A stretch of DNA of 61,594 bases, the filler included, from Jimgerdemannia flammicorona (lineage: Eukaryota), in the NCBI GenBank assembly GCA_003990765.1. It is 3 parts of 3 records of this genome, joined end to end, with 100 filler letters (N's around TTAATTAATTAA, not from the genome) between each part and the next. Parts side by side here need not be neighbours in the genome. Positions count along the whole stretch, not along the records: positions 1 to 20,465 come from RBNJ01001675.1; 2 more parts are not named here. The stretch is one strand, 5' to 3'. How positions within the stretch are numbered: position 1 is the stretch's first letter; every line of letters starts with the position of its first letter. A program made the translations under genes and the position numbers. Positions 1 through 44,735 of this stretch are shown piece by piece. A model generated the notes under the pieces. It was given only the letters and a program-made list of their open reading frames with translations, did not search any database and was not told the origin of the DNA.

Positions 1-3000
1 TTTTTATTATCAAATGAGTAGATAATAGAGAAAGAGTTTAGAGCAAGATGTGATACTATTACAGTAGATATGAAGGTTGGTGGTAAGAGGTTAAGTAAGA
101 AAAGATAATGATCTTATATGAATTTTTATAATGGAATAAGGAGGCAGAATAAAGTGTTTTCCAAAGCAAGGTACAATTGATCTACAACCTGCTCTTGGCA
201 CTACAGTATATGGTAGTCTTTATTCAAAATTGAGAACAAAGTTCAGGTAAACAAAGACACAGATCTAACCCCAGAATTCTGGAATTGGAATGGTGTATAA
301 TATACCCAGACCTTGCCTCAATCCAAACAAAAATTTGAATCAGGCTTCATCAATCTATATACATGATGGGCCATTAAAAACTCGATATAGAAACAATTGG
401 GAAAAGGTACCAGTCATATGATCAAATGTTATATATATACATATAAACAAATACCAAAAACAGAACTAGACTAATGATAATCACATATCATCATGTAATT
501 GTCACTTGTAGGTTTAAAACCCTAAAAATTATTAGCATCTGAAGTTGCAGGTATCAGGCCTAGAGCCTCAGCACTAGAGTGAACAAAGTGAGCAGAGGTA
601 GATAGGTATCATGGAGTATAGATATGCAGGCATCAGGCTTCGAGCCTCATGCCAGAGGTTGTCTGGTAATTTTTCACATTTTTAAACATCACATGGTACA
701 TATGGGCAGTGTGCCTTCAAGGAGGACTTAGAGCAAAGCTGGTATTTGAGATGGTATTCAGAACAGTAAAACCATTCTTCTAGGCAATGATTGGTCATTG
801 GGTGGTCACAGGGAAACCAAAACAAAGCAAAGTGGTATGTAGAGTCTTATCAGGCTGTTGATGTAGCTATTGGGCCATGTTGTATTGGATGACAAGCAAT
901 AGAGGAGGAAAAGTGGAGTGGGGGATAGGGGAGTAGAAAATAAGGAGAGGAGTAAGAAGTGAAGTTCAGACCTCAAGCCAATCAATCAAACTCAACTGAG
1001 CAGTTACAACATCAACAGGGTATCCTTTCCTGTGAACCAGAAATTTGGCCAAAGACTAACACTCATTAAGTCAATCATGATAAGAAGAGTAGAGGAGTGA
1101 TAGGTGGCAGGCCTCATTCACAATGCATAGACGAAGCATCTTCCTAGGATGATTACTCAACCAGTTAACAAACTGAGTACTATGTGGAAATTTGGCAAAG
1201 CAGCCTATGTAGAATAGTATGACTCAGATTTCCAGGTCCAGGTAATGATATGGTCTAGCAGACAAGACTTCTCATTTGATATGATAGTACAGAGGATAAA
1301 CAGTATCAAAAATTGAGGCCAAGTTTATAATTACTATAAAGACAATAAGATCATTGATATAGCAGTAGAACTTTAGCCTAGTGGTGATAGCTTAGCTAAG
1401 TGGATGATCAGGCACTTGCAAGGCATGCAACTCATGGGCAAAGCCAACAAGATTGGTAAGATCTAGAGTACAATTAGTATCCATAGTAATACCAGTCACT
1501 GAGTAAAAGGAACCAATGGCAGATGTAAATATTGTACAAGTCATGACTATGCAGACAAAGTTGAGAATGACATCACGTGGTAATGAGCCAGGGGAGAAGG
1601 CCATAGTTGACAAAAAAGTGAGATAGTCAATATACTCATCTAGTGTGATCCTGGTGTAGAATATGGCAAAATCCCCAGTAGCAATAAGAGAATAAGCAGA
1701 CATATCAAGGTAATCTGATTGAACTAATTGTAGTAGTTCTAATATATTATGTAGAGGTAAATAGCACAAGAAACCTATATTATAGTATAGATGGGCCAAC
1801 TACAGATAGAGAAAGCAAGATAGAAAATATAAAATCTCAGTTATGGGAGAGTTAAATGCACTAATGATTAGGTACTATACTATATATAACCCTTTGTATA
1901 CCTTGGGCAACATATGAAACATGGGAAACTTGCAATCATTGGGCTCTATGAAGTGTTCCCAAATCAGTATACAATTCAAGTCACTAATATAAAACTCAAG
2001 TAGACCAAGCAGGTCTAGTCTTACTGATTCCTTAACATTATCAATTATAGAGAAATCATTCACGTATACAGGATCAAGAAGGAGAGACCAAAGACTGTTA
2101 AGATATAGAGTATGCAGAATGACAGTACACTCCAAATTCTTGTCAGTAAGACAGACAGATAAGTCTTTATGAGTACAGATGTCTTTGAGAAGGCATTGGA
2201 ACTTCTTTGGTATAAGTATGCCAGACACATTCATCATGAGTCAGACAGCTTGATTCAGCATAGTACTCATATAAAGCATAATTTGCATATTTTCCATATA
2301 GTCTGGTGGTTACTATTTAGATGGCACCCAGACAGAGATCTCTGGAACATTATCAAGATTACCCATAGAGGTTCAGAAGGTAGCTAGGTCAAGTTGCCAT
2401 TAGAACAACAATAATAAAATTGGATCAATAGTACTGTTCATTGATACCAACCTGGAGAGAACAAACTTAGGGCCAAAGTTCAGCATATATGTAAGCTTGG
2501 GGGTAAGCTAAGTAGAGGTATATCAGTAACAAAGCTCTCCTCAGTAAATATCTGAAACTGAGGGATAAAGAACTGACTTAATTGAGAACTGAGAAGAGAA
2601 GATACAAAGGCAAAATTCTGAATTGGTATTGAGGCCACTACTCTATGTAAAATGGAGACATCAGGGCCAAACTATGCTGCTGGAAAGTCATATAAGATAT
2701 CCGGGCTAGGGACCTCTAGTTTTTTGAAACCAGAGGACAGATATCACTGGCATTGTACCAGATGACATGACATTTGACAGTAGTATACTTATTGCACTAC
2801 AGTACAAAAGCTCTGATAGTGCTCTTAGATAAGCAGCTCGAAGTTGATAAGTGGCTAGTCCCAGTAGAAGCAGATGAAATGGACAGAGAAAGTGAAGCCT
2901 TGTGTGCTTGCTTGACACCTTTTACAGAACCTACTGACATGGCAGAAGATAGGAGGCATCCAGAATAGCTACAGTAGTTCAGTGCAGTAGAGGTTGAAGT

Positions 3001-4354
3001 CACACTTACTTCCTTAGCCTTTCCCACAGCACCTGCAGACATAGCAGTAGAGGGTTAGAGAGTAGGGACACTCTTTTTCAGTCAGGCAGAACTAGTGGCA
3101 GCAGAAGCAAACATGTGTTTAGCACCTGGAGTAACAACCTCAAGATGCTTCTCAAGCTCCTCAACTATGGCTTTATAGGTGGCAGTAGAAATCCCATCTT
3201 GCAGAGATGAGGATATAGGGACAGTCAGGCAGACAGTGGCAGCAGCAGCCTTAGCAGCAGTGGCAGTGGTAAGATGGTGAGATTGATGCATGAAAATGTC
3301 AAAATCTTGGAGCAAGAACAAGTTTGTCTTGGCCCAGTTGGAGGCAGCAAGGGTAGCAACATTTTACTAACCCCTTGTGAGATATTGGCAGAAAGGCCAA
3401 AAAAGGTATAAGTTTCTGTTGATGCTTGCATGACTTTGTTGATTTTAGTATACTAGTCCTTAGTATGCTGGGTGGTGGCAGCTTGATCAGTTACAGCAGC
3501 CTTGATTGCAGCCATAGTATGGTGCTTAGCTTCTGCAGATATAGTAGTAAGAGTGGTAGTATGCTGTTCCTCTGGTAGGAGGGTAATCATAACAGCTACT
3601 TTCTTGGAAGCAGTAAACTTCCAGTCAGCAACCTGGGTGTGTAGGAAGTCAGTGCAGTGTTCTTTTATAGCAGTAATCTCGAGGGTAGAAAGCACTTCAG
3701 TATAAGCAGTATGGAAGAGAGCTGGGATCTTGACCAACATAGTAGTGACATAGGTGGCTAGGTTATTGAACTCCACCAAATTGGTGAAGGAAGTGAAGGA
3801 GATAGTAGCATTGCCATCTACATTTATATTATTTGTCATGTTATGTATTATAAAATAAGTAGATAATAGAGGAAGAGTTTAGAGTAAAATGTGATACTAT
3901 TATAGTAGATATAAAGATTAGTGGTAAGAGGTCAAGCAAGAAAAGACAATGATCTTATAGATAGAACAAGGAAGTGGAATAAAGTATTTTTCAAAGTAAG
4001 GTACAATTGATCTATAACCTGCCCTTAGCACCACAGTACATGGTGGTCTTTATTCAAAATTGAGAACAAAGTTCAGATAAACAAAGACATAGATCTAACC
4101 CCAGAATTCCAGAATTGGAATGGTATATAATGTACCCAGACCTTACCTTGATCCAAATAAAAATCTGAATCTGGCTTCATCAATCTATATATATGATAGA
4201 CTATTAAAAACCCAATATAGAAACAATCAGAAAAAGGTACTGGTCATGTGATCAAATGTTACACATACATAAACAAATGCCAAAAATGGAACTAGACCAA
4301 TGATGATCACATGTCATCACATAATTGTCACTTATAGGTTTAAAAACCTAAAAA
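1..4354 (-). mobile_element. Penelope-like retroelement family A, degenerate copy (left arm of giant palindrome)
   Basis: Reverse complement of ~4516-8946. RT fragments FHMLPKVYK (1875..2237) and GDFAIFYTRI...GITMDTNCTLDLTNL (1392..1799); ORF1 fragment 3453..3839; terminal repeat at 1-675 repeated at 3848-4360. Confidence 0.85.
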
Positions 4355-5044
4355 TCACCAGACAACCTTTAGCATGAGGCTCTAGACCTGATGCCTGCAT
4401 CCCTATACTCCATGATGCCTGTCTACCCTGCTCACTTCACTCACTCTGGTGCTAAGGCTCTACTCTGCTCTGGTTGCAAGGCTCTAGGCCTGATACCTGT
4501 ACCTTTAGGTACTAATGATATTTAGGTTTTTAAATCTATAAGTGATAATCATATGATGACACATGATCATTATTGGTCTAGTTCTGTTTTTGGCATTTGT
4601 TTATATATGTGAAACATTTGATCACATGACCATTACCTTTTTCTGATTGTTTCTATATTAGGTTTTTAATGGTCTATCATATATATAGATTGATAAAGCC
4701 TGATTCAGATTTTTGTTTGGATTGAAGCAAGGTCTGGGTATATTATGTACCATTCCAATTCCAGAATTCTGGGGTTAGATCTGTGTCTTTGTTTATCCAA
4801 ACTTTGTTCTCAATTTTGAATAAAGACTACAATGTACTATAGTACTGAGGATAGGTTGCAGATCAATTACATCTTGCTTCAGAAAATACTTTATTCTACT
4901 TCCTTGTTCTATCATGAAACTTTATATAAGATCATTGTCTTTTCTTGCTTGATCTCTTACCACCAACCTTCATATCTACTGTAATAGTATCACATCTTGC
5001 TCTAAACTCTTTCTCTATTATCTACTTGTTTTATAATATACAAC

Positions 5045-6215
5045 ATGATAGATAATATGAATGTAGATGGTGATGCTGCCATCTCTTCTACTTCCTTTGC
5101 CAATTTGGCAAAGTTTGACAACCTGGCCACCTATGTCACTACTATATTAGTTGAGGTCCCAGCTCTCTTCTGTACTGCTTGTACCAGAGTACTTTCCACC
5201 CTTGAGATTGCTGCTATGAAAGAATACCATGCTGACTTCCTATGTATCCAGGTTGCTGACTGGAAGTTTACTACTTCTAAGAAAGTAGCTATTATGATTG
5301 CCCTCCTACAGAAGGAACAGCATACTACTGCTCTTGCTACTGCTTCTCCAGAAGATAAGCACCATGTTATGGCTATGATCGAGACTGCCATGACTGATCA
5401 AGCTGTCACTGCCCAGTATACTAAGGACCAGCATGCTAAAATCAACAAAGTCATACAAGCATTGATAGAAGCTTATACCTTTTTTGGCCTTTCTGCCAAT
5501 ATCTTACAAGGGATTATTAAGAATGTTGCTACCCTTGCTGCCTTCAACCAGGCCAAGACAAACTTGTTCTTACTTCGAGGTTTTGATATTATTGTGTATC
5601 AATCTCACCAACTTGCCACTACCACTGCCACTAAGGCCGCTGCTGCTACCATTCACCTGACTGTCCCTGCATTCTCATCTCTACAAGATGAGATTTCTAC
5701 TACTACTCACAAAGCCATAATTGAGGAGCTTGAGTAGCACCCCAAGGTTATTACTCTGGGTACTATACATACATTTGCTTCTGCTGCTGCCAGTTCCACC
5801 TGACTGAAAAAGAGTGTCTCTGCTCTCTGATCCTCTACCACTATGCCTGCAGGTGCTACAAGAAAGGCTAAGGAAGTGAGTGCAACTTCAACCTCTGTTA
5901 TGCTAAACTGCCATAGCTGTTCTGGATACCTTGGTGTGCCTACAAAGGGCCACTGAGGTCCTTGCCCCCTATCCTCTGCTATATCAGTGGGTTCTATAAA
6001 AGATGTCAAGTGAGCATGCAAGACTTTGCCTTCTCCATTCATTTCATCTGCTTCTACCAGGACCAGCCACTCATCAACTTTGAGCTACTTGTCTAAGAGC
6101 ACTGCCAGAGCTTTTGTGCCATAGTGCAACAAGTGCACTGCTGCCAAATGTCATGTTATCTGGCATAACACCAGTGATGTCTGTTCTCTGATTTCAAAAA
6201 ACTAGAGATCCCCAG
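5045..6215 (+). pseudogene. PLE-A ORF1: Ala/Thr-rich helical protein with C-terminal Cys/His motif, interrupted by stops
   Basis: ORF 5045..5737 followed by further coding-like sequence ending in CNKCTAAKCHVIWHNTSDVC at 6125-6184; homologous fragments on the minus copy at ~2700-3839. Confidence 0.7.
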
Positions 6216-6299
6216 TCCAGATGTCTTATATGACTTTCCAGCAGCATGGTTTGGCCTCAATGTCCCCATTTTACATGAGATAGCAGCCTTGACACTAAT

Positions 6300-8250
6300 T
6301 CAGAATTTTGCCTTCAAGTCTTCTCTTCCTGGTTCTCAATTAAGTTAGTTCTTTATCTCTCAGTTTCAGATATTTACTGAGGAGGGCTTTGTTACTGATA
6401 TACCTCTGCCTTGGCTTACCTCTGAGCTCATGTATATACTGAACTTTGGCTCTAAGTTTGTTCTCTCTGGGTCAGCATTGATGAACAGTACCATTGATCT
6501 AATTTCATTATCATTATTCCAACAGCGACTTGACCTAGCTATCTTCTGGACCTCTATGGGTAATCTCAATGATGTTCCAGAGATCTCTGCCTGAGTGTCA
6601 TCTAAATGGTGACTACCACACTATATGGAAAATATGCAAATTATGCTTCATATAAGTGCTGCACTAAATTAAGCTATCCAACCCACAACAAATGTGTCCA
6701 GTGCACTTGTACCAAAGAAGTTCCAATATCTTCTCAAAGATATCTATACTCATAAAGACTTCACTGTCTATCTTACCAATAAGAATTTGGGGTTCACTAG
6801 CATTTCTCATGCTCTATATCTTGATGGTCTTTGGTCACTCCTTCATGATTCTATATATGTGAATAATTTCTCTATGATTGATAATATTAAGGAATCAGTG
6901 AGGCTAGACCTACTTGGTCTACTTGAGTTCTATATCAATGACTTAAATTGTATGCCAATTTGGGAATATCTCATAGAGCCCAATTATTGCAAGTTATCTG
7001 TATTTCATATATTGTCCAAGGTACACAAAGGAGTATATATATAGCATGGCACCCAATCATTAGTACATTTAACTCTCCTACAACCAAGATTTCATGTTTC
7101 CTATCTTGCTTTCTCTATCTGTGGTTGGCCCATCTGCACTATAATATGGGTTTCTCATACTATTTACCTCTATGTGATATGTTAGAACTACTATAATTAG
7201 TTTGATCAGATTATCTTGATGTGTCTGCTTGTTCTTCTGTTGCTATTGGGGATTTTGCCATATTCTACACCAGGATCACACTAGATGAGTGCATTGACTG
7301 CCTCACTTTTTTATTGACTGTGGCCTTCCCCTCTAGCTCATTGCTGCTTGATGCCATTCTCAGCCTTGTCTACATAGTCATGATTTGTATGATGTTTACA
7401 TCTGTTATTAGTTTCTTATGCTCAGTGACTGGTATTGCTATAGGTACTAATTATACTATGGATCTTGCCAATCTTGTTGACTTTGTCTATAAGTTGCATG
7501 TCTTGCAAGTGCCCAATCATCTGCTTAGCTGAGCCATCACCACTGGGCTAAAGTTCCACTACTATATTAATGATCTTATTGTCTTTACACCTGTAATTAT
7601 GGACTTGGCCTTGATTTTTAGTACTATTTATCCCTTGTATCATCATATTGAATAGAAAGTCTTGTCTACTAAACTGTGCCATTACCTGGACCTGGAAATC
7701 TGAGTTGCACCATTCTACACTGATCACTTTGCCAAATTCTCATATAGTACTCAGTTTGTCAACTAGTTGAGTAATCATTCTAGAAAGATACTCTGACTAT
7801 GCATTGTGAATGAGACCTACTGTCTATTGCTCTTCTGCTCTTCTTGCTGTAATTGGCTTGATGAGTGTTAGTCTTTGGCTGAATTCCTAGTTTATAGGAA
7901 AGGATACCCTGTTGATGTTATAACTGCTCAGTTGAGTTTGGTTGATTGGCTTGAGGTCCAAACTTCACTTCTTACCCCTCTCCTTATTTCCCACCCCCCC
8001 ATCCTCTACTCTGCTTTTTCTCTCCTATTACTTATCATCCAATACAATACAGTCTGATGGCTACATCAACAGTCCAACAAGACTCTATATATCACTTTAC
8101 TTTATTTTGGTTTCCCTGTAACTGCCCGATGACCAATTATCACCCAGAAGAATGGTTTTACTATTCTGAATGCCATCTCAAATATCAGCTTTACTCTAAG
8201 TCCTCCTTGAAGATTGCACTGCCTGTATATACTGTGCAATGTTTAAAAAT
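6300..8250 (+). pseudogene. PLE-A reverse transcriptase, no GIY-YIG endonuclease seen
   Basis: ORF fragments 6694..7044, 6948..7196, 7221..7532 and 7875..8057 carry PLE RT and thumb motifs; the coding region runs into the pseudo-LTR shortly after the thumb. Confidence 0.8.
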
Positions 8251-8971
8251 ACAAAAAATCACTGAACAACCTCCAGTGCAAGGCTCTAGGCCTAATACCT
8301 GCATACATACCTATACTCTATGATGCCTGTCTATCTCTGCTTGCTTCGCTTGCTCTGGTGCTAAGGCTCTACTCTACTCTGGTCACAAGGCTCTAGGCCT
8401 GATACCTGCACCTTTAAGTACTAATGATTTTTAGGTTTTTAAACCTATAAGTAACAATCATATAATGACATATGATCATTATTAGTCTAGTTCCGTTTTT
8501 GATATTTGTTTATGTATGTGTAACATTTGATCATGTGACTGGTACCTTTTCCCAATTGTTTCTATATCTGGTTTTTAATGGCCTATTATGTGTGTAGATC
8601 AATAAAGCCTAATTCAGATTTTTGTTTAGATCAAGACAAGGTCTGGGTATATTATATACTATTCCAATTCTAGAATTCTGGGGTTAGATCTGTGTCTTTG
8701 TTTACCTGAACTTTGTTCTCAATTTTGAATAAAGACCGCCACATATTGTGGTACTGAGGGTGGGTTGCAGATCAATTGCACCTTGCTTTAGAAAACACTT
8801 TATTCTGTTTCCTTGTTTCATCATAAAAATTCACATAAGATTATTGTCTTCTCTTGCTTGACCTCTTACTGTTGACCTTCATATCTGTCATAACAGTATC
8901 ACATCTCACTCTAAACTCTTCCTCTATTATCTACTCATTTTATAATAAAAAAAAAAAAAAAAAAAAAAAAA

Positions 8972-11900
8972 GATATTGATAGAATGATGTGAGATAACTA
9001 GAGGGTTTATACTCTTTGAGTAAATAGACTTGAGATGAAGATAGATTGAGTACTGATAGCTGACTGCTGAGAGATAGATATTTGGATGGCTTTAGAGATA
9101 GAGTAGTATCTGTGGCTAACTATTAGGGACTATTGAGATATGACTGATTTGGAAGGAGTAGAGATAGATCTGAATATTAGTATCTCAATTTCCCTATATT
9201 AGAGAAGAAGGAGTTGTGAGATATATGAGTAACTGATATTGAGATGAAGATTGCTTATTGAAAAGGTAAGAGATCTCTAGTGGGGGTCTACTAGGTAAAG
9301 TTGAAGGAAGCTGCCAAGTTATATTAAAGTAAGGCTAGCAGATTTTGAGAGGCTTAGCAGAGAAGGTAGATAAGGTGGGCTTCCTGCAGAATGAAGATAT
9401 TGTAGCTGGTGGACTAGAATATTAATACAGAAGGATGTGGTGGACTGAAGGCTAGAGCAGACTCAGCTGAAGATAGAGGAGTTAAAGAGAGTATTGAGAG
9501 AGAAGAAGAAGACTCATATATAGGATATGGCAGCTCAGCTGAGGTAGCAGAGGCTTGAGGAGAGCAAGAGGCCAACTAACTATTTATTTTAGCTTCTATA
9601 GGTGAGGAGAGTCAGATAGTAGTAACATAGGGTACTTAATGAGGAGGACATCTAGATCATTGAGATGTAGAGAATCTTGAGTTTATTGAGATATAGATAG
9701 AGAGATATATAGAGTGAGAAGGAGGGTAATATGATAAGAGAGAGATTGAGTACTATCTGGAGGATTGGTATCCTCTAGAAGTAGATGATCTTGAGAAATT
9801 AGCTCAATCAGTCTGAGGGAAAGAAATTTTGAGTATCTTGTTAACTACAAAATAGAGCATAGCTCTCAGTAAGAATGTCCTGTCTTGGGACTTTTGGAAG
9901 AAGATAGTGGAAGTCACATAGGTCTTAGTGGAGATAGTAGTAATATATAACTTGGTCCTTATATCTGTAGAGTAGGTTGGAGATCAGAATCTTAGTCTAG
10001 TGATATTGCTTTATAAAGATAAAGGCAGGAGAGAGGATTGGAAGTACTGGAGACAGATTATGCTTTTGGATATAAACAGAAGTTAGTCATGAAGGTAATT
10101 GTTATGAGATTATAGAAGATAGCTCAATAGATATTTGGGGTTAAACAGAGAGACTTTGTTAGTAATAGTCTGATAAGAGATAGAATGGCCTGAAATTACA
10201 ATATAATTGAGGGGGCAAGAGCTAGCAGACTAGATAGCTAGTTGGTTTCTTAAATCAGAAGAAGGCCTATGATTAAGTACAGTGAGTCTGGCTTAAGAAG
10301 ATATTGGAGAGAATTAGTATCTCTTAAAAATTTTAGCTAGTAATGATCAGTCTTTTGAAAAATACCTGAGCTGTAATCTTGTATAATAGTCATTATAGGG
10401 TCTCATTCTTATTGAGAAGAGGAGTCCTCCAGAGGGACCTACTGTCTCTTATTCTATATATACTATTATTAGAATCTTTGATAGATAGGATTTACCATAG
10501 GATATCAGGGCATTTAGTATAGGTGGTTTGGAAGGTTGGGGTCTTTATAGATAATATAGTAGTGGGACTTAGCTCTATTGATAATATTGATAAGCTGAAG
10601 GCTACTGTTGACTTGTACAAGGAGTGCTCTGGAGCTAAGCTTAACTGGCATAAGTATGAGATAATAGTATTGAAGAATAGTTTAGTAGATAGAGATATTG
10701 TGGGTACTATTGTCTCAGTAGAGGAGATAGTATAGTATCTAGATATATTCCTATTAGTATATAGATCAGTTTTGCTCAGAGTTTGGTGGAAAGAAAGATG
10801 GTAGAATGGAAGAAGGTTTTTCAGAGTTAGGGGGGGTACTATATCTTTCTTGTCAGATGGGTGTCAATTTTTTATATCTACTAGTTGTCAAAGTTATAAT
10901 ATCTGATATATTACATGAAATTTCTAGAGTAAGTGGTGAGGAGATTGTTGAAGATAGGTAAGAGCTGGATTTGGATAGAAAGGCAGAGTTAGATATGTTG
11001 GGAGATCTTAACTGCTCTGGTGAATAGAGGAGATTTAGATCTAGTAGACTTTCTAAAGAGATTATTTTGTCTTAGAGCTTAGTGAATGAAGAGAGCTATT
11101 GAGTTGCAGGGTAGAGAGTAGTTGTCTTTGATACAGAAGGTCTGAGAGGTGACATTCTCCCCTAGAGAATCTTTTGGTGATTTATTGTCAATAATTATAC
11201 TGAGATAGTAGATACTTATAATATAAAGAATTCTAATAGAAAGTGGTAAGGAGGGCTCACTATATTGATCTATATTAGTAGAGTAATAAGGGGGAGACAC
11301 ATTGGAGAACTACAATATAGAGATAGAACAGGCTTTTATTAAGTAGAGTACTAGTTATAGAATTCAATATTAGTACTAGTATTGAGTCTCAATGGAGAGT
11401 GGGACAGAATTTGTAGCCAGTAAGCTCATAGTTAGCAGGCATTGATAAGATATAGAACTAGACTAGAGTCTGGTCCTGAAGTACTGAGAGATAGTAGTAG
11501 TATTCTCTAAAGTTCTGAGTAATGTAGTAGTATATCTTTAAAAGAAATATCATACTGAACTTTAAATTGGAATAATTGGAAAAAGGAGGGTTTTTAAGTT
11601 CAAAGATTGTTATAATATCAGACAGGAGAGAGAAATTGTACAGAAGCCAGAATATTGGTTGAGTGAGTATAATATACTTAGTGACTTCTGAAAAGTAGTT
11701 GGGGGTTGTCTAGAGATAAGGCATTGAGGGGAGGTAGGATGATTTGAGAGAGCAGTTAGTAGATTATATTGATAATGGATAGCTTATAGTTAAGTAGATA
11801 CATATTGGTAATGTGAGTTAAGTTGGTTAGATATTAACAATATGTTTTCAAAAATAGAAGACAGATGATTTTGAGAGAGAGGGTAGTAAGGTATGAAGGA

Positions 11901-12183
11901 TTGATAGTAAATGTTCTGTCAGATTGATAAAGAGAATAGAGCTCTTAAGAGGATTACTTAAATATATATTTAATAGTAGAATATGTATAAGAAGTAATAG
12001 ATAGTTTGAGATAATTAATAATCTGGTAGTTTTTAAAAGAGTGAGAGTAGGGGAGAAAAAGTGTTTTGAGATAGAGTAGGGTAGAGTTGGGTTAGAGTTA
12101 CTAGTGTGGTATGAGAACTATATGTTTGTTATATATTAGTTAATAAAAGAGCCTAGTACTTATAGAAGAAAAAAAAAAAAAAA
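8972..12183 (+). mobile_element. L1/Tx1-like LINE, 5'-truncated and heavily mutated
   Basis: ORF 10523..10735 (WKVGVFIDNIVVGL...SGAKLNWHK) matches the RT at 42295..43758; GV.QGDPLS remnant near 10417-10450; AATAAA then A-run ending 12183. Confidence 0.85.
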
Positions 12184-13641
12184 TAGAACAGAAGTTAATA
12201 TAGAAGATACCTACTCATATTGAAATGATGATTAAAAGATAGCCTAGAATAGACTATTCTTTAGTGAGGACTGATGTAATAAGTCAGGAGAGAAATATAC
12301 TAAGTTATCATCTAAATCAGTTATTATAATTTAACTATATACTATACTAGGCAACCAGGATAGCTCTATTATATAAATTTATATAAATAATTCAGATAGC
12401 CAAATAAGGGCATAAATAGTTCCTAACCAGTATACTATATCAGAATTTAAGATTAGTATTCCTAGCTAGTATATTGTATTAAAATTTGAGATTTATATTT
12501 CTAATAGAAATAGCTAAATATTATTAGAAATAGTAATCTATAGTTAGTTATATAATAACTAGATAGTATCTATAATTATATAAAATACTCTAAGATTTGA
12601 GTAAATAAACCTTAGTCCAAAAAGTTTAAAAGTAAAAGTCAATTATCTACTATACTTAGAAAAAATATCTACTAAAAGCCTCTTAATTCAGGAAGAATTG
12701 TAATATTTTAGAGATATGTTTACCAATAAGCTACTGCAAACTTTGCCTTATTTTTACTCTAATTCACTTTCTGATAGAAAGCCTGATTTTTTACAAAGTT
12801 TAAGTAAAGAACTTTACTATCATTTTTAAATAGTTTGCTAATTTAGGAAAAATCTGTACTATCAAAGTTATTTTCAAATAGTCTACTAATTCTATCTAAT
12901 TAGAAAATTATCTATATTATGCAAATTTGTACCAGAAACTATTGAACATTTTATTGCTTTTTAATAAAGTAACTGGGAGCTCATACTAAACTACATAGTA
13001 GCTCTAACTTTATAATTTATCTCTATTGAGCTAACATATTATAATAGTTATATTCAAAGCTCATAGCTCAGTTCACATATTGGCTGATCATATTCAAAGC
13101 CAAACAATAGGTAAAATATATAAATAAGTTCTTTAAGTTACTACTGAGGAGGAAGAAGGCCCAGTGGGAGCCAAGGGAGCAAACCCAGAGCCAGTGTCAA
13201 AGCGAACAGAAGACATGTGGAATAGCATGTATAAGGGAGACGAACAAAGAACGTAACCAAAAATGCATCAGCCATTTATTGCCATGTAAAAATGCAGTCC
13301 TTATATACAAAAAACGACATCCCAAAAGGGAGGATGTGCCACAACTCAGGGCGAACCGAATTAGGAACCACATGACTGCTGGAGATAAGCGGAGATAAAG
13401 GGGGAGCCAATCCCAATTGCAGGATAAAAATCACAAACAAACACAAACAAAACAAATCCAAATCGAGATTAAAAAACATCTACAGACCTCGGAGGAGTGA
13501 GCACGAGCGAGGGGTGAGGCCAAAATGGAGTGAGCTGCAGTGAGCCCAAGTGAAGTGAGGGGCCGAAGGGAGTGGAGGGGAGCGGAGTGAGGCCGAGACC
13601 CCAGAGTGAGCGTGAGACCCTGGAGGGGGCAAGAATGTTTT

Positions 13642-15591
13642 TTAATCCTCTCCGGCAGAACCGGAGACACCAGAAGGTGATGAAAACGCAAAACGAGAGC
13701 AATGGATTGAAGAAGAAACAGAAGGAAGACGCGAACAAGCAATCAGAGGGCATTGGGAAAGAGGTGAAAGTCCATGGTGTGAAAGAGAAGAGTGCAGGAT
13801 GGTATTAGGGCATTGAGCGACCCAGTGAGCATAATCGAATAGTATGACAAGAATCGGGGGTGGGAAGGAAGAGGGGGTATGGAGAGAGTAAGGGGGGAGA
13901 GAGGGAAGGGAGGGGGGATAAAGAGAAGAGAGTAGGGTAGAGTGAACAACAGACCATTCAACAGAAGCAAGCAGATCACGAACGATAGAAATAGGGTAGG
14001 CACGATAATGGACCACGAAATTGCCGAGAACCCGAACAGCAGACACCCAATCAGAATGATGGGAGCAGTATAATACAAGACGACAAGCCTCACCCTGAAC
14101 GCATTCAAGAAGAGTGTGACGAGGATGATTGGACAAGAAGTCAGAGAACTGTTGGGAATGGGGAAAACGAGAATAAACAACAGTTCAGAAAGGAGAAAGA
14201 GAGATGGAAAGGTCCAAGAAGGAAATATTAGTCATACTGCACACCCAGGTAATAGAATGGTGGGGAGGGTAGACACCCAGGAATACACTAGGGATATCAA
14301 TACCAACAACAGCGAAGATAATAAAGTCATCAATGTATCGGCGAAAGAAGATATCCCCAGCCTGGAATACAATGGAAAGAGATGAAGTAATATCACGTAA
14401 TGCACATAATTCGTGGGCCAGGCCAATGAGGTTGGCAAGGGTGGGGGCACAATTCATTCCCATGGCAATACTAGAAGTCTGGTGAAAGGAGCCAAGGGCC
14501 GACTCAAAATAATTAGAGCTGCAGACAAGGAGTGTAAGCTTGACAATAGAAGCCAATGAAACCAGGAAATCCAAAGGAAAAACAATGGAACCCAGGAAGT
14601 GAAGACAAGCATCAATCTCATCAAAATGAATAGCAGTATAAAAAGAGGAGAAGTCACCAGAGGCCAAGTGGGAAAAATGATGAGCAGGCACAATGGTGGA
14701 GCAGAGAAGGGTGAGCTCCTGAGTATCATGAAGAATGGTATACTCAGGCCCAAGATGGTATTATAAGAGAGCCATTCAGGAGAGAAAGAAGCAGGATAAC
14801 CACTTCGAAATCTTGGTGGTAGGAGAACTGTAAGTAGCTATAATAGGACGCCAAGCCAAAGTAGGCTTGTGAACTTTAGGAAGAGCATAGAAAACTGGAA
14901 GAGAAATATCTGGGGAGGACAAAGAGTCCTGGAAGAAGTTAAAAATGGGGTTTGCAAATGGTGAATCCGAAAGCAATCTAGCATGAGCCAGAGAAACCCA
15001 AAGAAGAGTGAGAACCTCATCCAATCCAAGAGCACTAGGCTCGTAAGCCATGGCTCGAAGGAGGGCAGAAAGGCCATCAAGGTAGAGCAACTTAGGAATA
15101 AGTGCAAAACCCTGATTCTTATCAGTGACTGTGAGCAAATGCATAGGCAATTGCTTGACCGATTTAAGCGCAGTATGCATGGCACGGTCCGAAATCAAGC
15201 AAGAGTGAGCACATCTGGGAATGGACAGTGAGCAAGCCATGTCGAGGAATATGCAGTGTGAAGAGACATTGGGAGGGGGGACCCAATCACTAGGAACAAA
15301 ATAGTGAGAGAGCATCTCACCATGATCTTGAAAGAAAATGGCAAGGTCAAGAGCACAATGAAAACATGTGAGACGAGCCAGATCAGTGAAGGAGAATTGT
15401 GAGGGAGTCGCAGGAAAAACAAAGCGAGGACCCAAGGATAAGGCAAAGACTTGAAGGGGAGAAAGGGGGCAGTCAGCCGAAGAAAAAAAAGGAGACAATA
15501 GAGTTTCAAGAGAAGAATAAACCCGAAAGTTTGGGACAAGTAACTGGGAAAGACAAAGAGGGGACAATATGAGGAACCACTCAGGGTGCAC
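13642..15591 (-). pseudogene. PLE-B reverse transcriptase (single frame with a few premature stops), no endonuclease domain
   Basis: ORFs 14776..15591, 14185..14691 and 13642..14136 are in the same frame: TDKNQG, FYALPKVHKPTLAWRPII..SPTTKIS, DFSSFYTAI, IAMGMNCAPTLANL, FFRRYIDD, ISFLDL, SNHP..GEACR..CS, RAYP. The frame ends soon after the thumb with no GIY-YIG. Confidence 0.9.
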
Positions 15592-15656
15592 CAGAAGTGA
15601 TGATAGAATCCAAGAAGGGATGGGGACACTGGGGGAGAATCATGCCGGGGGGAAGT

Positions 15657-16900
15657 TTAAGAGCAAGAGGCCTTCCCCTTCCCTCTGACTTTTTTTGAAG
15701 GTGGCGAGCCCAACGAATGGGAGCACACCCCATCAGAGTGCCAGACCTTGTGGCCACAGGCTTTCATGCAGCCCTTACATTCAGGGGCATGGGTAGAGGA
15801 GGCAGAGGAGGAACCGGTAGAGGAGGCTGAAGGCAAGTGAGCAGCCGAAGGGACAGCAGTGCAAGAAATACCACCATGAGGACAGACAGACTTGGCTGGG
15901 TGCCAGTAGGCATAGTGGAGGCGACTGGAGCAGACAGCGCAAGGCCAGGCCCCGACAGGGTGGAAACCAAGTTGGCAGCCATGCTTGGGGGCAGGGGGAA
16001 TGGAGGAGGAAGCCTTGGCGGGGGAGGGGGACCAGGAAGAGGCCAACGAAGCCTGATTGGGCTTGGTGGGGGTCTTGGTGGGGGTCTTGGAGGGGGCCTT
16101 GGTAGTGGCAGCGGCAAAGGAACAAACCTCAGTATGAGCAGCAGCACGAGCTTCGGCACGGATGGCCTTGGAGACCGAAACCTCGGGGGAGGTGGGCAGG
16201 GGAGCAGTAGCAGCAGTGCAAGCAGTGGCGGCAGTACATGATGACTCCTGCTCATGAAGGTGAGCAACAAAAGAGGTGCCAGCGAGGAGGAAATGACGCA
16301 CAGTGTCAATGTCGGCAGTGACAGAAGGAACGTCTTGGATGGCGAAGCCACAGAAGGGAGCAGTATCCGAAAGGCGGGAGGAGGCGAAGGCCACAAAGGC
16401 AGCACAGGCACATTGGAAGGAGATGGAAGTGGCAGCAGCAGAAGCAGCGATGGCATCAGCAGCGGTGAGTTTGGCAGCAGCAGTGGCAGCGTGAACCTCT
16501 TCAGAGAGGGCTTGGTGGTAGGCTTCAGGGAGAATGGAGTAGTGGATGGCAGGCAGAGCGACAACATCGACGTCACGCAGAGATGAGCCTCCTTGGCAGA
16601 GAGGGCAAGAACTGACTGGAATTGAGAGAGAAGTGGATGACCAGAGGGACAAAGGTCTAAGGGGAGAGAGAGGATGGCAGACGAGACATAAGACTCAAAT
16701 GAGACAGTGGCAGGGGTGAAGGCAGGGGGAGGAGGAGGAGGAAGTGTCTCATCTATGAGCTCGTCGACGAGGATGGAGGCCCCGAGGGCAGGCCGTACAG
16801 CAGAGGAGGAAGAAGGCCCAGCGGGAGCCAAGAGAGCAAACCCAGAGCCAGTGTCAAAGTAAACAGAAGATATGTGGAAGAGCATGTATAAGAGGGACAA
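15657..16900 (-). pseudogene. PLE-B ORF1: Ala/Pro/Ser-rich protein with two C-x2-C-x8-WH-x4/5-C motifs
   Basis: ORF 15657..16652 contains CAVCSSRLHYAYWHPAKSVC and CKGCMKACGHKVWHSDGVC; the N-terminus probably lies in the 15764..16900 frame (frameshift). Confidence 0.7.
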
Positions 16901-17625
16901 ATAAAGAATGTAACTGAAAATGCATCAGCCATTTATTGCCATGTAAAAACACAGTTCTTATATACAAAATATGACATTCCAAAAGGGAGGACACACCACA
17001 ACTCAGAGCAAACCGAATTAGGAACCACATGACCACCAGAGATAAGCAGAGATAAAGGGGGAGCCAATCCCAGTTGCAGGATAAAAATCACAAACAAACA
17101 CAAACAAAACAAATCCAAATCGAGATTAAAAAACATCTGCAGACCCCAGAGGGGTGAGTACGAGCAAGGGGTGAGGCCAAAATGGAGCGAGCTGCAGCAA
17201 GCCTGAGTAAAGTGAGGGGCTGAAGGCAGTGGAGGGGAGCGGAGTGAGGCTGAGACCCCAGAGTGAGCACGAGACCCCGGAGGGGGCAAGGATGTTTTTT
17301 AATCTCGATTTGGATTTGTTTTGTTTGTGTTTGTTTGTGATTTTTATCCTGCAACTGGGATTGGCTCTCTCTTTATCTCCACTTATCTCCGGCAGTCATG
17401 TGGTTCCTAATTCGGTTCACCCCGAGTTGTGGTGCATCCTCCCTTTTGGGACATCATATTTTATATATAAGGACCACATTTTTATGTGGCAATAAATGGC
17501 TGATACATTTTCGGTTACATTCTTTGTTTGTCCCCCTTATACACGCTCTTCCACATATCTTCCATTTGCTTTGACACTGGCTCTGGGTTTGCTCCCTTGG
17601 CTCCTGCTGGGCCTTCTTCCTCCTC
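16803..17625. repeat. Inverted pseudo-LTR pair (~335 bp arms, 153 bp loop)
   Basis: 16803-17137 is the reverse complement of 17291-17625. Confidence 0.95.
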
Positions 17626-17627
17626 TT

Positions 17628-17661
<34 letters not shown>

Positions 17662-18289
17662 TCTAAAAATCTAAACAAAAAAAAAATAGTATCTAATAAT
17701 CTTTGAACTTACATTAAATCCATTTCTGACCATTTTGAGATATGAATAATATAATTAGCAAAACTGTTATTTTGTTGAATAATAAAATCATTAGAATAGA
17801 TAATAACTATAAGAAATATAAAAAACAAAAAAAAATTATATGATTAAATAATTTATTTAGCTATCTAATCTCTAACTACTATCTCTCTTACTACTACCTC
17901 TCTAGCCTCCACCAGTCTGGCTACTGTCAGCTTGATTACTATTACTACTAGTCTGACTACTATTACTGCTAGCTCAGCTACTATTAGCTTAACCATAGCT
18001 CTAAAGCAAAGAGATCATCTCTATAAAGATTGTTTTAATTATAGACAATAAAACTTGTCTTACTTTTTCCAAGATCTGCCAATACTTGAATTTATTGATC
18101 TCTGACCTCTCTCTAAGAAAGAGACTATATAATAACTTTTACTAGACTACTGTTACTACTGCTAGAAGAAATGCAGATAAATACTGATCATATTACTATA
18201 TATATTAGATTGCTATATATATATATAATAGTAAATAAAAATACTATATAATAACAAATAGTTAATATATTATCTTATATTGTACCTTT

Positions 18290-18429
18290 TAGATTAAATC
18301 TTAATTTGATTTAAATCAAATTGAATTAGACCTCAATTCAATTTAAATTCAATTTAATTTGAATTCAATTTGAATCCAAAAATTCTCATTTAATTCAATT
18401 TGAATTAATTTGATTTATTTGAGAGTACT
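18290..18429 (+). mobile_element. Probable decayed right end of a hAT element related to the MITE at 19654
   Basis: AT-decayed aattcaattt repeats ending ttgatttatttgagagtacta, resembling the MITE end ttgactcgttaggagcacta after C->T/G->A changes. Confidence 0.45.
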
Positions 18430-18859
18430 AGATGAGTTCAATTTAACTTTCTCTAGTATATCTAATATCTTCTTCAATATTACTCTATCTATAATCTTAT
18501 TAAGATCTTGTATTTTCTCAATCTATCAATTATCTTATAATATCTCACTTATATTACTTTTAATCTTTATCAATAGTAGCTCTATTATGTATCTCATTAT
18601 AAAGTCTGTTACTTTTCCGAAATCTCTCTCAATATTTCCTCAGTCTTTATTACCTCCTCACTATTATCTTACTGAACAACAGATCAACTTTATCTTATCT
18701 TCTATATCTTTAGTACTTTAGTTAAAAACTTTGTTGACCTCTGATCTTCTTCTATTCTATAAGTTTACAATCTTATCAGCAAACTATCTATTATACTATT
18801 CACATCTGTCTTCAACTCAGTCTGCATCATCTTAACTTCTTTTATCAGCTTAACCAATC
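18430..18859 (-). mobile_element. LINE fragment (endonuclease-RT linker), probable continuation of the LINE at 28054-30958
   Basis: Translates to a helical linker with an EEDQRSTKFL-like remnant; reads across as LERL|VKLIKE with CAATC at 18855-18859 and 28054-28058. Confidence 0.55.
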
Positions 18860-19021
18860 TACTGTAACAGACCAAAACATACCATCTGAATTATAACTTA
18901 GCCAGATGATATAAACAATTAGCATATTTACTCAGCATAATGTGACTTCTAGTATATCATAGTTACCCATATCTACTATACTTATAATTAGCCAAGATAC
19001 CAGATAAGGATTGTTTATCTG

Positions 19022-19133
19022 TATCCTGAGGACACACTCATATCCTGTGGACACACTCATATCCTGTGGACACACTCATGTCCTGCAGACACACTCATAT
19101 CCTGAGGATACACCTGTATCCAGAGGATATACC
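19022..19133 (+). repeat. 19-bp tandem repeat (TATCCTGTGGACACACTCA), about 6 copies
   Basis: Read directly from the sequence; head-to-tail, no spacers. Confidence 0.9.
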
Positions 19134-19653
19134 CAAACATTACCAGAAGTAGTAAATCTATAGTTAGCCACATAGCAATCAGATAGCATCCAACTTGTAT
19201 AAATTACCCCAGAGACAAGAGTGAATAAACCTCAGTCCGAAATTGAATCCAAAAGCAAAAGTCAAGTCTGCCTACCACACTTCAAGAAGAACTCTACAGC
19301 TACTGTTAGGAGATTGTGAGCATTGGTCCCCTTTTCCCACTCTGGTCCACTTTCTGATACAAAGCTGATTTTGACACCAAGTTTGAGTGAAGAACTTTGC
19401 CACCCTTTGAAGAGAAACCTGCCACTTAAGAAATAAGCCACGCTATTGGTACACTTGCCAGATAAGCCTGAAGAACTCAAGTTATCACTGCCATTCTTGC
19501 CACAAGCCAGTCTTTCTGACACAACTTCGCAGTGGAGCCAGTCTATGATATAACTCTATGCAAATGAAGCCAGTCTTTGACAAAACTTACCAAGAATCCT
19601 AGTTAATTCTCAGTTGAAGCCGCCGATTCAGGAGAATCCGCATCATCTGCCGT

Positions 19654-20232
19654 TAGTGCTCCGAACGAGTCAATCCGGATGGGATTCGGATGGATTCGAA
19701 TCAGATTCGAATCGGATTCGAATCGGATTCGAATCAACCATTGTTTTGATTTCCAAATTAGACAATTAAATGTTTACATCAATAACTTGATGAATAATCA
19801 TCCAAATTTGATGATCTTGGTGTCATTTGAAAGCCCTTAATAAGGCCTTTCTAATGATACCAAGAACATTAAAATCGGATAACGTGTTGCTGAGATGTTA
19901 AGGAAAACGTTCCATTTGACGAAATTTCCAAAATCGGTGATTCAGACGTTTTCCTTCATAACTCAGCAACGCATGATCCGATTTCAATGTTCTTGGTATC
20001 ATTAGATAGGCGTTATTAAGGGCTTTCAAATGACACCAAGGTCATCAAATTTGGATAATTATTCATCAAATTATTGATGTAAACATTTAATTGTCTAATT
20101 TGGAAATCAAAACAATGGTTGATTCGAATCCATCCAGATGGGATTCAAATCCCATCCGAGTTGATCTGGATGGGATTCAATCCGAATCAATCTGAATCCA
20201 ATCCGAATTAAATTGACTCGTTAGGAGCACTA
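19654..20232. mobile_element. hAT-type MITE, almost fully palindromic
   Basis: TIRs TAGTGCTCC(G/T)AACGAGTCAAT; 8-bp TSD TCTGCCGT at 19646-19653 and 20233-20240; subterminal GATTCGAATC repeats; long internal inverted arms. Confidence 0.9.
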
Positions 20233-20465: not shown

Positions 20466-20565
20466 NNNNNNNNNNNNNNNNNNNNNNNNNNNNNNNNNNN
20501 NNNNNNNNNTTAATTAATTAANNNNNNNNNNNNNNNNNNNNNNNNNNNNNNNNNNNNNNNNNNNN
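20466..20565. other. Assembly gap with TTAATTAATTAA linker
   Basis: N-run with a central linker, same design as the gap at 41031. Confidence 0.97.
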
Positions 20566-22023: not shown

Positions 22024-25000
22024 ATGATTGATGATTGCTTCTCTTGTGTCAACGAACTGGCTCAAAGAAGAACCAACAGAAGAAAGGCTCCTACAACCGA
22101 AATCACCACCATTGGATCAGACAAACTGCTCACCCTTAAGGCTTTTGTCAATGGAGCACCTGTCAAGATCATGATAGACAGTGGGGTCTCAGGCAATTTC
22201 ATCAATGAGGAGATAGCCAACAGACTCAAGGTCTTCACCTCCCCAGTACAGCAAACTCAAGCAGTTGCTACAGCTGATGGAACCTCACATGTTATTAGCA
22301 AAGAAGTCCACAATCTATCCTTTCGAATTGGTGACTACCAAGTACATGTTACCCTCCAAATTGTACCACTTCCTGACAATGAAATCATCCTTGGAACTCC
22401 ATGGTTAAAACAAGAAAACCCCATGATCGATTGGGTAAACCATTCTCTGACCATCAAGAAAGGATGCCACAACTTCAAACTACAAGGCAAGAAGGACCCA
22501 CTCAACTCTAGTGACCCTGGACCAAAGATCACCCACATCAACAAGCTACAACTCAAGAAATTGGCCAGGAAATGCCCTCTCTTCGCTATCTCCATCCGCC
22601 CATCCAAAGGAGAACCCGAGAACTCTGAAGAAGATTTTTCCAAAGTTGACAACCATGTCAGACCACTACTCCAGAAATTCCGAGACATATTCCCAAAGAA
22701 GCTCTCGAAAGACCTACCTCCCAAACGAGCAGTAGACCATGCAATCAAAACTATCCCAGATGCCAAACCAGCCTTCAAGTCAATCTATCACATGTCTCCG
22801 AGAGAAATTGATGCACTCAAGAAGGAAATCGATGAACTCCTAGAACAAGGATTCATCCGACCCAGCATATCACCCTATGGTGCACCAGTCCTCTTTGTTG
22901 TTAAGAAAGGAGGAGACCTACGAATGTGCATTGACTACCGTGATCTCAATGAACAGACCATCAAGAACTGTTGCCCACTACCGAGGATCGATGAAATATT
23001 CGATAGACTTACCAACCCACAATTCATGAGCTCTTTTGACCTGCGAAATGGTTACTGGCAAATTGCCATGAAAGAAGAAGACATCTACAAGACAGCTTTC
23101 CGAACTCGCTATGGACACTTCGAGTTCCTGGTTATGCCCTTTGGCTTAACTAATGCTCCAGCAACCTTCCAGACACTGATGAATACCATTCTGCATCCAT
23201 ATCTGGACAAATTCGTTATTGTCTACATTGACGACATCCTAGTCTTCAGCAAAACCCTAGAGGAACATCTTGAACACCTTGAACTAGTACTACTGAAACT
23301 CCGAGAAAACCAACTCTTTGCAAAACTCAGTAAGTGCGAATTTCTTCTGAAAGAAATTCAATTCCTTGGACACATTGTCACTCCAAATGGAATCAAAGTG
23401 GACCCTAGTAAAATCTCTGCAATCAAGGATTGGCCCAGACCCAAGAAGCTAAAAGACCTCCAGTCATTCCTGGGATTAGCAAACTATTACAGGCGATTTG
23501 TGGCCAACTTTGCTAAAATCGCTACCACCCTCACCCAAATGACCAAGCACAACAAGAAACAAGAACAACCCTGGACCATGAAACAAGAGAAAGACTTCAA
23601 CAATCTTGTAAATTGGGGACCCAAACAAGATACTGCTAAAAGATGCCCTGATAACCACACCAGTACTTCAAGCAGCAAACCCTGCCCTACTATATGAAGT
23701 CACCACTGATGCCTCTGACCTAGCTCTTGGAGCAGTGCTCATGCAAGAAGGACACCCTGTAGCCTATCACTCCAGCAAGGTCAATAATGCCGAAATCAAC
23801 TACGCAACTCACGAAAAGGAAATGCTAGCCATCGTAGACACTCTGATCAAATGGCGACCATATCTAGAAGGAGCACACTTCACTGTATTGACCGACCACA
23901 AGTCATTAGTCAACATCAAGACCCAGGCTACTCTTTCTCGAAAGCAAGCCAGATGGATGAAAGTCCTCACCAACTTTGACTACAAAATTCAGTACTGCCC
24001 TGGTAAGGAAAATATTATTGCTGATGTAATCTCCAGACCACCAATCGAAGAGGTTATCCAAACCCTGACCTTGGTTACCAACACTATCATGGAACAAATC
24101 ATTGCAGCATGTATTGATGATAAAGAAGCTCAAGCACTCCGAGAAATCCTGAACAATGATGATGCTGACAAGCATACCAGGTACAATTAATACCAACTCA
24201 AGGACAATGTGATCTACTACAAGGACAGATTGTATGTCCCAAACAACCAAGACCTCCGAAGGACTATCCTATTCGAATGTCATGATGCCCCTATAGCTGG
24301 ACATTTAGGATTTGATAAATGTTATGAAGTTATCTCCCGAAACTTCTATTGGCCCCGCATGGCAGATCAGCTCAAAACCTACATTACTTCCTGTGATGCC
24401 TGCCAAAGAAACAAGTCCTCAACACTAGCAAAACCCGGCTTACTCCACCCTATTCCAGTACCATCTGCAAATTGGGAATAAATCTCTATGGACTTCATTG
24501 TACAACTACCCCGAACCAAGAATGGAAAAGATACAATTGTTGTCTTTGTGGACTATCTCAGCAAACAAGCCCACTTTGTGCCTACTACCACTACTGCAAC
24601 AGCACCAGACATAGCCACACTCTTGTTTGATAATATCTTCCACTATCATGGTCTTCCTAAGATCATTGTTAGTGACCGAGATCCAAATTTTACCAGCCAC
24701 TTTTGGAAAGCCCTCTATGTGTACCTTGGAACAAAACTTGCACTATCCACAGCCTTTCACCCCGAAACTGATGGCCAAACTGAAAGAATGAACCGAACTC
24801 TGGAACAAATGCTAAGGAACTATGTTTCCTATAGACAAGACGATTAGTATGAACACCTCACTGCAGTTGAGTTTGCCTACAACAACAGCAAGCAAGCCTC
24901 TCTTGGAATGACTCCATTCTTCGCTAATACTGGACAAAATCCAAACACCCCATTGACACTTATCCGAACTACTGAAGAACCCTCCACAGTCGAAGCCATT

Positions 25001-39374: not shown

Positions 39375-39375
<1 letters not shown>

Positions 39376-39410
<35 letters not shown>

Positions 39411-39448
39411 CAGAAAAAAAAAGAAAAAAAAAAAAAAAAAAAAAAAAA
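39376..39448 (+). repeat. Long interrupted poly(A) tract
   Basis: Read directly from the sequence. Confidence 0.9.

Positions 39449-44732: not shown

Positions 44733-44735
<3 letters not shown>

Follow-up and report, generated by a model that had tools for sequence, protein, structure and literature searches.

A stem-loop module at the inversion points of two endonuclease-less Penelope-like elements of Jimgerdemannia flammicorona

The question raised by this locus is why two retroelement insertions of one genome both invert at a short inverted repeat (IR) that the elements also carry where no inversion is present. The locus lies in a stretch of 61,594 nucleotides of Jimgerdemannia flammicorona (assembly GCA_003990765.1), referred to here as the window, in which three parts of three records are joined end to end by filler. 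Two related retroelement families are located within positions 1-17700 of the window, family A on the plus strand and family B on the minus strand. The order of the unit is common to both: tail, ORF1, reverse transcriptase (RT), loop module, and tail again. Both families are assigned below to Penelope-like elements (PLEs) that lack an endonuclease. The IR is present in the non-inverted copies of both families and at the inner end of both long inversions. The arrangement of the sequence suggests that A and B may be two single-event insertions of endonuclease-less PLEs, in which converging cDNAs annealed at the IR yielded the inverted structures. This answer is tentative and is held at slightly short of an even chance.

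The RT frames of A and B are ~33% identical to each other, and match one protein, P0002, at 44% identity in a set of 5.8 billion proteins. When P0002 is used as the query of an exhaustive profile search (phmmer), two proteins, including P0002 itself, are found below 1e-30 and 3295 proteins are found at E<=0.001. A protein cluster search gives only generic metazoan PLE-like clusters. Metagenomic relatives amount to 147 stretches confirmed by tblastn, and RVT_1 together with a C-terminal GIY-YIG domain is found in 4 of the 15 metagenomic relatives scanned. A and B are assigned to the PLE lineage because their relatives include RTs fused to a C-terminal GIY-YIG domain. The motifs TDKNxG and LPKVHK, which we take to be PLE signatures, are present in the RT alignment. 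Both families also have the direct pseudo-long terminal repeats (pLTRs), and the inverted copy adjoining the upstream pLTR, by which PLEs are recognized. In their three sense frames, neither A nor B has a GIY-YIG match at E<=1, and a weak RVT_1 match is the sole domain there; in the intact relatives P0002 and P0003, the protein stops at the corresponding C-terminal region, again without an endonuclease. A and B are called endonuclease-less PLEs because no GIY-YIG domain is found in A, in B or in the C-terminal region of these intact relatives. Hammerhead families give no match when the whole window is searched to E<=1, or 1-9100 and 12900-17900 to E<=10, although the copies are so heavily decayed that an ancestral ribozyme may have been lost; the pLTRs match none of the other Rfam families up to E 10 either. 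A search of the loops for the YTGANGA core pattern gives nothing convincing. Neither a TTAGGG dimer with at most one mismatch nor a telomere-like array is found in the window, TTAGGG being a repeat that may not be that of the host.

The inversion of family B is the shorter one. On the minus strand, the 3' tail (T1, 13146-13480) starts from the 3' terminus of the element at 13146 and includes one IR arm (13467-13479). The tail adjoins the 3' loop (13481-13633), which adjoins the other IR arm (13635-13647), in which the RT stop codon TAA is located at 13642-13644. The RT reading frame (13645-15639) contains 665 codons with three in-frame stops and has no endonuclease domain, and the upstream ORF1-like frame (15657-16694) encodes 345 amino acids without a Pfam match. 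The 5' tail (T2, 16802-17137), which is the direct pLTR copy, and the 5' loop (17138-17290), which is the inversion pivot, are also on the minus strand, and the inverted tail (T3, 17291-17626) is on the plus strand. The inverted tail is the entire tail with nothing beyond, and stops at the 3' terminus of the element. A T22A14 run (17627-17662, assigned to neither strand) flanks the inverted tail and is probably a target sequence rather than a poly(A) tail; the termini of family B carry no A-tail.

The IR arms of family B, GATTAAAAAACAT (13467-13479) and ATGTTTTTTAATC (13635-13647), pair without a mismatch over 13 bp and are separated by 155 nt. This IR is the longest perfect one among the eight pairs listed for the B unit, and scores 13, whereas 30 shuffles average 6.7 and reach at most 8. 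This result confirms, far above shuffles, an earlier note on this DNA, which had claimed that the B loop is bounded by a perfect 13-bp IR even in the non-inverted 3' copy. The 5' loop (17138-17290) is flanked by the identical pair of 13-mers, and its right arm continues as a 336-nt inversion (17291-17626 versus 16802-17137, 90% identity). The direct pLTR of 502 bp (13146-13647 versus 16803-17304, 90% identity) is composed of a 13-bp IR arm, a loop of 153-155 nt and a tail of 336 bp. The inverted arm is exactly the tail and abuts the flank where the other two tails also end, and in the direct copy the tail runs on into the body without a break.

The inversion of family A is larger. The window opens with TTTTT, after which the end of the family A tail appears in reverse complement. 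Copy 1 (1-4357, minus) is a complete inverted element with tail, body, loop and tail, of which the A-run at the 3' end is truncated by the start of the window, and its RT match is located at 2507-720 (tblastn). Its 3' loop module (~510-667, minus), which is identified by alignment as the third A loop, carries a 24-nt deletion. At the centre of the dimer, the inner end of the left arm (4334-4357, plus) has a sequence of the IR-R type with a CCT middle, and not of the IR-L type found in the 3' copies (alignment columns 41-63). A single central loop of 158 nt (4358-4515, plus) is common to both head-to-head copies and is oriented as copy 2. Copy 2 (4516-8970, plus) consists of a 5' tail (~4516-5046), ORF1, RT, a 3' pLTR and an A25 run at 8946-8970. 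In its non-inverted 3' pLTR, IR-L (8241-8264, plus) contains the RT-frame stop TAA at 8244-8246, and is followed by the 3' loop (8265-8421, plus) and by IR-R (8422-8444, plus), which is the beginning of the tail (8422-8945). A-runs are thus present at the outward ends of both copies. The inverted arm (4516-8951 versus 4357-1) is 81.9% identical over 4441 columns, and the direct pLTRs (4338-5038 versus 8241-8947) are 84% identical. Family A is therefore a head-to-head dimer: its inverted arm is not short but amounts to a second complete copy, and the two whole elements have one central loop in common.

The family A IR (8241-8264/8422-8444) is imperfect, with a 9-bp block, a mismatched bulge of 3-4 nt and an 8-bp block, so that ~18 of 24 positions are paired; a repeat search reports it as 19 nt at 79% and 17 nt at 82%. 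Both 3' copies contain this IR, with a variant ORF-side arm that has a TAC/TGT middle and one extra base, and its position is the exact start of the long inversion. The imperfect IR of ~23 bp that had been proposed to bound the A loop is therefore real in this form, and the proposal that each long inversion begins at the IR holds as well: an IR intrinsic to the element is the pivot in both families.

In both families the pLTR fills the interval between the RT stop codon and the start of the following ORF1, and begins with a conserved stem, whose core G-W-TTAAAAA is paired with TTTTTAA-W-C and contains the TAA stop. This stem closes a loop of 153-158 nt (~155 nt) that is GCTC-rich on the sense strand. 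No alignment between the pLTRs of A and B is obtained outside these shared stem-loop features. The outer stem, GTTTAAAAA/TTTTTAAAC in A and GATTAAAAA/TTTTTAATC in B, is identical at 8 of 9 positions, and the remaining base pair shows a compensatory exchange of T:A to A:T on both sides. The IR closes the loop in the minimum-energy folds of both RNA and DNA. An identical 11-mer is located at loop offsets 73 and 74 in the best of six A/B copy pairs, and is reached in none of 200 position-restricted shuffles and in 9 of 200 unrestricted ones. The central loop word is CTCRCTTYRCT, and the cDNA strand of this word contains GCGAAGC. Because the outer stem and the central word are common to elements of which the RTs are only ~33% identical and the pLTRs are unalignable, they fit a conserved cis element for strand switching. 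The conserved cis element proposed in the earlier note is upheld to this extent, but its specific assignment to snap-back priming is not separable from annealing of two cDNAs.

The sequence GCTTCGC at 8343-8349 survives in family A, as had been reported. The reconstruction of a CpG-containing motif in A is supported by alternation of CA, TG and CG at three sites in three copies. The corresponding reconstruction in B is supported at one CpG, for which TA, TG and CA variants are found at 17208-17209/13553-13554 among window copies and metagenome contigs, but not at the second CpG, for which the same comparison gives no variant support. When the CpG-restored or majority module is folded, that of A forms a long hairpin with a GCUUCGC apex (z -5.5) and that of B does not form such an apex (z -0.7). 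This evidence is weak, and the perfect stem that the centre copy brings in inflates the value for A.

The loops had also been described as GAGC-rich. They are dense in GCTC and CTC[AG]C on the sense strand, where no GAGC is present, and are the densest 155-nt windows for these words in each element. The GCTC/GAGC words are dispersed, however, with 3-6 per loop and no tandem GAGC array, and the GCTC count is reached in 19, 177, 18 and 125 of 1000 dinucleotide shuffles for the four loops, so that the enrichment stands but is moderate. The Rep-binding element in the inverted terminal repeats (ITRs) of adeno-associated virus (AAV) consists of GAGC tetramers, and d(GCGAAGC) forms a mini-hairpin. 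The A and B modules resemble these in having GAGC-type words on the cDNA strand, with one surviving GCGAAGC and a second one that is partly restorable. Unlike the AAV ITR, the module is internal to the unit, has no tandem GAGC array and is not accompanied by an encoded Rep/HUH protein. The analogy to Rep binding is superficial, being confined to short words, with no Rep/HUH domain in the sense frames.

A TATA-like word followed by AATAAA is present in each tail, namely TATATAAGG in B (~13300-13330, minus) and TATATATAG in A (~4675-4690 and ~4815-4830). These words suggest that the pLTR may carry promoter and polyadenylation signals. The sense strand of family B (13146-17137, minus) is strongly pyrimidine-rich, and its translations are rich in Ser, Leu, Pro and Phe; the plus strand at 14001-16000 has a GC skew of +0.24 and an AT skew of +0.39.

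The position of the module allows another explanation, in which the stem-loop primarily has a different job and the inversions are incidental by-products of a self-complementary stretch. The stem-loop could be an RNA structure of the 3' untranslated region or upstream promoter that is bound by the RT or the ORF1 protein, or a pause or termination signal for RT. The module directly follows the stop codon and lies upstream of the TATA-like and AATAAA words of the tail, conservation within the pLTR is confined to it, and the RT of an anole PLE recognizes an RNA stem-loop and initiates at it (PMC11167929). Nevertheless, this explanation is improbable: no RNA family matches at E up to 10, and the folds are no more stable than those of shuffles. 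It is also compatible with the strand-switch models, and concerns the retention of the IR rather than the formation of the inversions. An origin of the IR and loop by insertion of a miniature inverted-repeat transposable element (MITE) was considered and rejected, since no target-site duplication is found beside the IR; such an origin may be ancient, and would be irrelevant to the present role.

The divergence of the repeated parts bears on the number of events. The three B tails are 90.7, 90.7 and 89.9% identical to one another, with 14, 17 and 17 private changes and transition:transversion counts of 29:2, 29:2 and 34:0. Among the four A tails identity is 84.5-88.8%, and between the two A bodies it is 82.4%, with 529 transitions and 26 transversions. 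Equal, star-like divergence of the repeated parts fits one event per family, followed by decay. This divergence, the third A loop at ~510-667 and the exact match of the B arm to the 336-bp tail are findings that go beyond the earlier note. A fold-back artefact of the assembly is ruled out by the arms being 82-91% identical. Transitions account for ~95% of the changes between repeat copies and are not confined to CpG in the B tails. The window is rich in transposable elements, and its CpG observed/expected ratio is 0.04-0.05 over 1-10000, ~0.3-0.4 over 10001-20000 and 0.85-1.07 (about 1) in 30001-40000, with 0.00-0.05 across the repeat blocks in 1-10000 and 50001-61594. These results suggest repeat-targeted C-to-T hypermutation or heavy methylation of repeats.

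Short IRs seed large DNA palindromes after breaks. A change of the DNA after insertion, either by a break beside the IR with fold-back repair or by two separate head-to-head insertions, would make use of this property, and the left end of the A palindrome is truncated by the window, so that an extension into the flank is conceivable there. In family B, however, the arm ends at the terminus of the element and excludes both body and flank. All repeated parts are equally diverged, and exact abutment at the IR would have to be a coincidence in each of two unrelated insertions. A change at the DNA level is thus highly improbable.

The IR is favoured as the pivot of a strand switch at the stage of reverse transcription, and annealing of converging cDNAs is favoured over simple snap-back. 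In the favoured mechanism, two antisense cDNAs would be synthesized, one from each DNA end of the insertion site and each from the fixed 3' initiation point of the element, and would anneal to each other through the IR. Both cDNAs are antisense and thus of one polarity, which limits pairing between them to a self-complementary stretch, here the IR. The shorter cDNA would end at the tail-side arm, and its 3' end would anneal to the other cDNA at the complement of the ORF-side arm; extension of this end along the other cDNA would double as second-strand synthesis. The order of the product would be an inverted arm, one loop and a direct element. In B, the second cDNA would switch at the first IR that it meets, so that the arm is the tail alone, and in A it would read through to the next IR, so that the arm is the whole unit. 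The stem-loop would then correspond, in elements without an endonuclease, to the palindrome that endonuclease-bearing Penelopes have at the 5' pLTR edge. A PLE protein cleaves and extends both target strands in vitro, and initiates at a fixed internal site of the RNA (PMC11167929). The left arm at the A centre carries the tail-side IR, which indicates that the junction strand was copied from the tail inward and that the crossover occurred in the loop-proximal ~8 nt.

Snap-back self-priming, in which a single first-strand cDNA copies the upstream pLTR and its 3' end folds onto its own tail-side arm, is possible but on balance unlikely. The cDNA would fold once a few bases of the ORF-side arm are made, and self-copying would give the inverted arm and prime the second strand. 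For both families, the junction coincides with an IR that is intrinsic to the element, and a full-length inverted copy of A with one asymmetric central loop is expected from self-copying of a complete cDNA. The excerpts of PMC3846280 drawn on here, published in 2013, infer self-priming from palindromes at the inverted pLTR junctions of endonuclease-bearing Adineta vaga Penelopes, and those of PMC11371274 document snap-back junctions of cDNA for R2 proteins in human cells. However, the B arm ends exactly at the boundary of tail and body, although the cDNA template would go on into the body, and snap-back requires an extra assumption for B, such as a stop at a nick between two RNA templates. In addition, the centre-left arm of A lacks the ORF-side IR variant expected of a full-length primer, and the switch would have to occur after only ~8 nt.

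Relatives of the two families were sought in metagenomes. A soil-metagenome run at 80% likeness gives 309 contig pieces on 1-18000, most of which are <90% alike with differences dominated by transitions. Contig joints on opposite strands within A, such as that from 4350 to 4527, are explainable by ordinary loop-tail contigs that switch between similar arms. The metagenome loci related to A and B number 79, are all distant (22-29% identity), and contain an IR of at least 60 nt in only two cases. Of these distant PLE loci, 55 have at least 330 nt after the ORF stop and were searched for a stop-adjacent IR. One locus, L079, has an IR of 13 bp with one mismatch and a loop of 149 nt, located 6 nt past the ORF stop (L079:4587-4761). 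This locus is PLE-like and endonuclease-less, its loop is not GCTC-rich, and its IR may be a chance occurrence or a parallel case.

Several results weigh against annealing of converging cDNAs at a conserved IR. A stop-adjacent IR above its own shuffles is found in only this one of the 55 distant loci, which indicates that the module is not general to PLEs. In an ungapped test, the A IR scores 9 and does not exceed its shuffles, which average 7.9 and reach 10. The shared 11-mer is exact in one of six A/B copy pairs, and the rest share 7-8 nt there. The alignment of the A and B loops is weak and depends on the copy pair, with z of 0.1-3.8 over eight sense-versus-sense comparisons, and the extant modules fold no better than shuffles (z -0.15 to -1.8). 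Both-strand extension is known from an endonuclease-bearing PLE, and two DNA 3' ends are assumed here by analogy. The equal divergence could partly reflect repeat-directed or methylation-driven mutation that evens out distances, rather than equal age. The A dimer fits both annealing of two cDNAs and snap-back with an early switch, and the number of insertion events is two, both in one window. Judged from the distant loci, the module looks clade-specific among PLEs.

In twin priming of L1, the RNA is also primed by a second DNA 3' end, and a 5' inverted segment results. In that case the inverted piece is internal to the RNA and contiguous with the direct one, and, unlike this, the inverted arm of A and B begins at the 3' terminus and repeats sequence of the direct arm. 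Annealing of converging cDNAs has its basis in the anole PLE, in which cDNAs could converge from one point of the RNA and the 3' terminus likewise lies at the pLTR/ORF boundary (PMC11167929). Unlike A and B, the anole PLE bears an endonuclease and a hammerhead ribozyme, and the result was obtained in vitro; its main text describes no joining mediated by an IR (PMC11167929). If A and B arose by snap-back, they would resemble the R2 insertions of the PMC11371274 excerpts, in which the 3' end of the cDNA primes on the cDNA and antisense sequence is left at the 5' junction. The R2 events are described there as sporadic by-products at unprogrammed positions, whereas the pivot in A and B is a conserved, built-in IR.

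The A. vaga Penelopes, as described in the excerpted text of PMC3846280, are closer in architecture. A and B share with them direct pLTRs with an adjacent inverted 5' pLTR in head-to-head orientation, and a self-complementary 5' edge of the pLTR at the inversion junction, which in A and B is also present in non-inverted copies. The A. vaga palindromes are continuous and 15-38 bp long (PMC3846280), whereas the IR of A and B is 13-24 bp long and split by a loop of ~155 nt with a conserved central word. The A. vaga elements carry GIY-YIG (PMC3846280), and A and B do not. The same excerpts state that protist and fungal endonuclease-less PLEs lack the inverted-pLTR organization (PMC3846280). Judged by description in the available part of PMC8557442, Athena and Coprina resemble A and B in having no endonuclease and an upstream ORF1-like frame. 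These elements are described as having reverse-complement telomeric repeats, a hammerhead near the 3' end and an association with telomeres (PMC8557442). In A and B neither a hammerhead nor a TTAGGG-type repeat is found, and A and B are set apart from these descriptions by their pLTRs and inversions. The stem-loop was not found described in the open-access main texts listed as matches for PLE self-priming and pLTR inversion, among which PMC3846280, as excerpted, is the sole relevant match for self-priming.

Several other features are located in the window. A near-perfect hairpin of 285 nt (19786-20070) matches Rfam MIR7533 at E 3e-20 with 104.6 bits against a gathering threshold of 230, and resembles a fold-back, MITE-like repeat more than an established miRNA gene. 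The pol region of an LTR retrotransposon (22024-24190, plus) contains an aspartyl protease, RVT_1 (E 2e-36) and RT-RNase H in two adjacent frames. An open frame of 511 codons (42223-43758, plus) matches RVT_1 at E 1e-24 and represents an unrelated retroelement, which is flanked by long A-runs at 39375-39449 and 44681-44733. Four runs of 44 N are arranged as two pairs at 20466-20565 and 41031-41130, with 12 bases between the members of each pair, forming masked or gap-like stretches of uniform size.

Both copies are dead, and the concept is otherwise not new: the architecture is an interrupted version of one known in endonuclease-bearing PLEs, for which the idea of self-priming is already published. 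A and B differ in representing an endonuclease-less lineage, and in having a large spacer, a conserved stem that spans the stop codon and a shared central word. The origin of the tandem and inverted pLTRs of PLEs is still described as undefined in the available part of PMC8557442, and the first in vitro PLE system was reported only in 2024 (PMC11167929). As natural experiments, the two old insertions suggest that the pivot is a single cis element, short and mutable. The snap-back and converging-cDNA models make different predictions, by which they can clearly be separated, for the length of the inverted arms and for the position of their outer ends. A stronger possibility, which is doubtful, is that the clade has a programmed replication hairpin, in which the stem spanning the stop codon, the loop of ~155 nt and a GCGAAGC-type mini-hairpin at its midpoint serve to prime or template second-strand synthesis. 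If this is the case, the programmed hairpin would replace the second-strand nick of the endonuclease, and head-to-head dimers like A would be unresolved replication intermediates, as in the hairpin replication of parvoviruses. The structures of A and B indicate that the pLTR and inverted organization thought to be typical of endonuclease-bearing PLEs can also occur in a lineage without an endonuclease.

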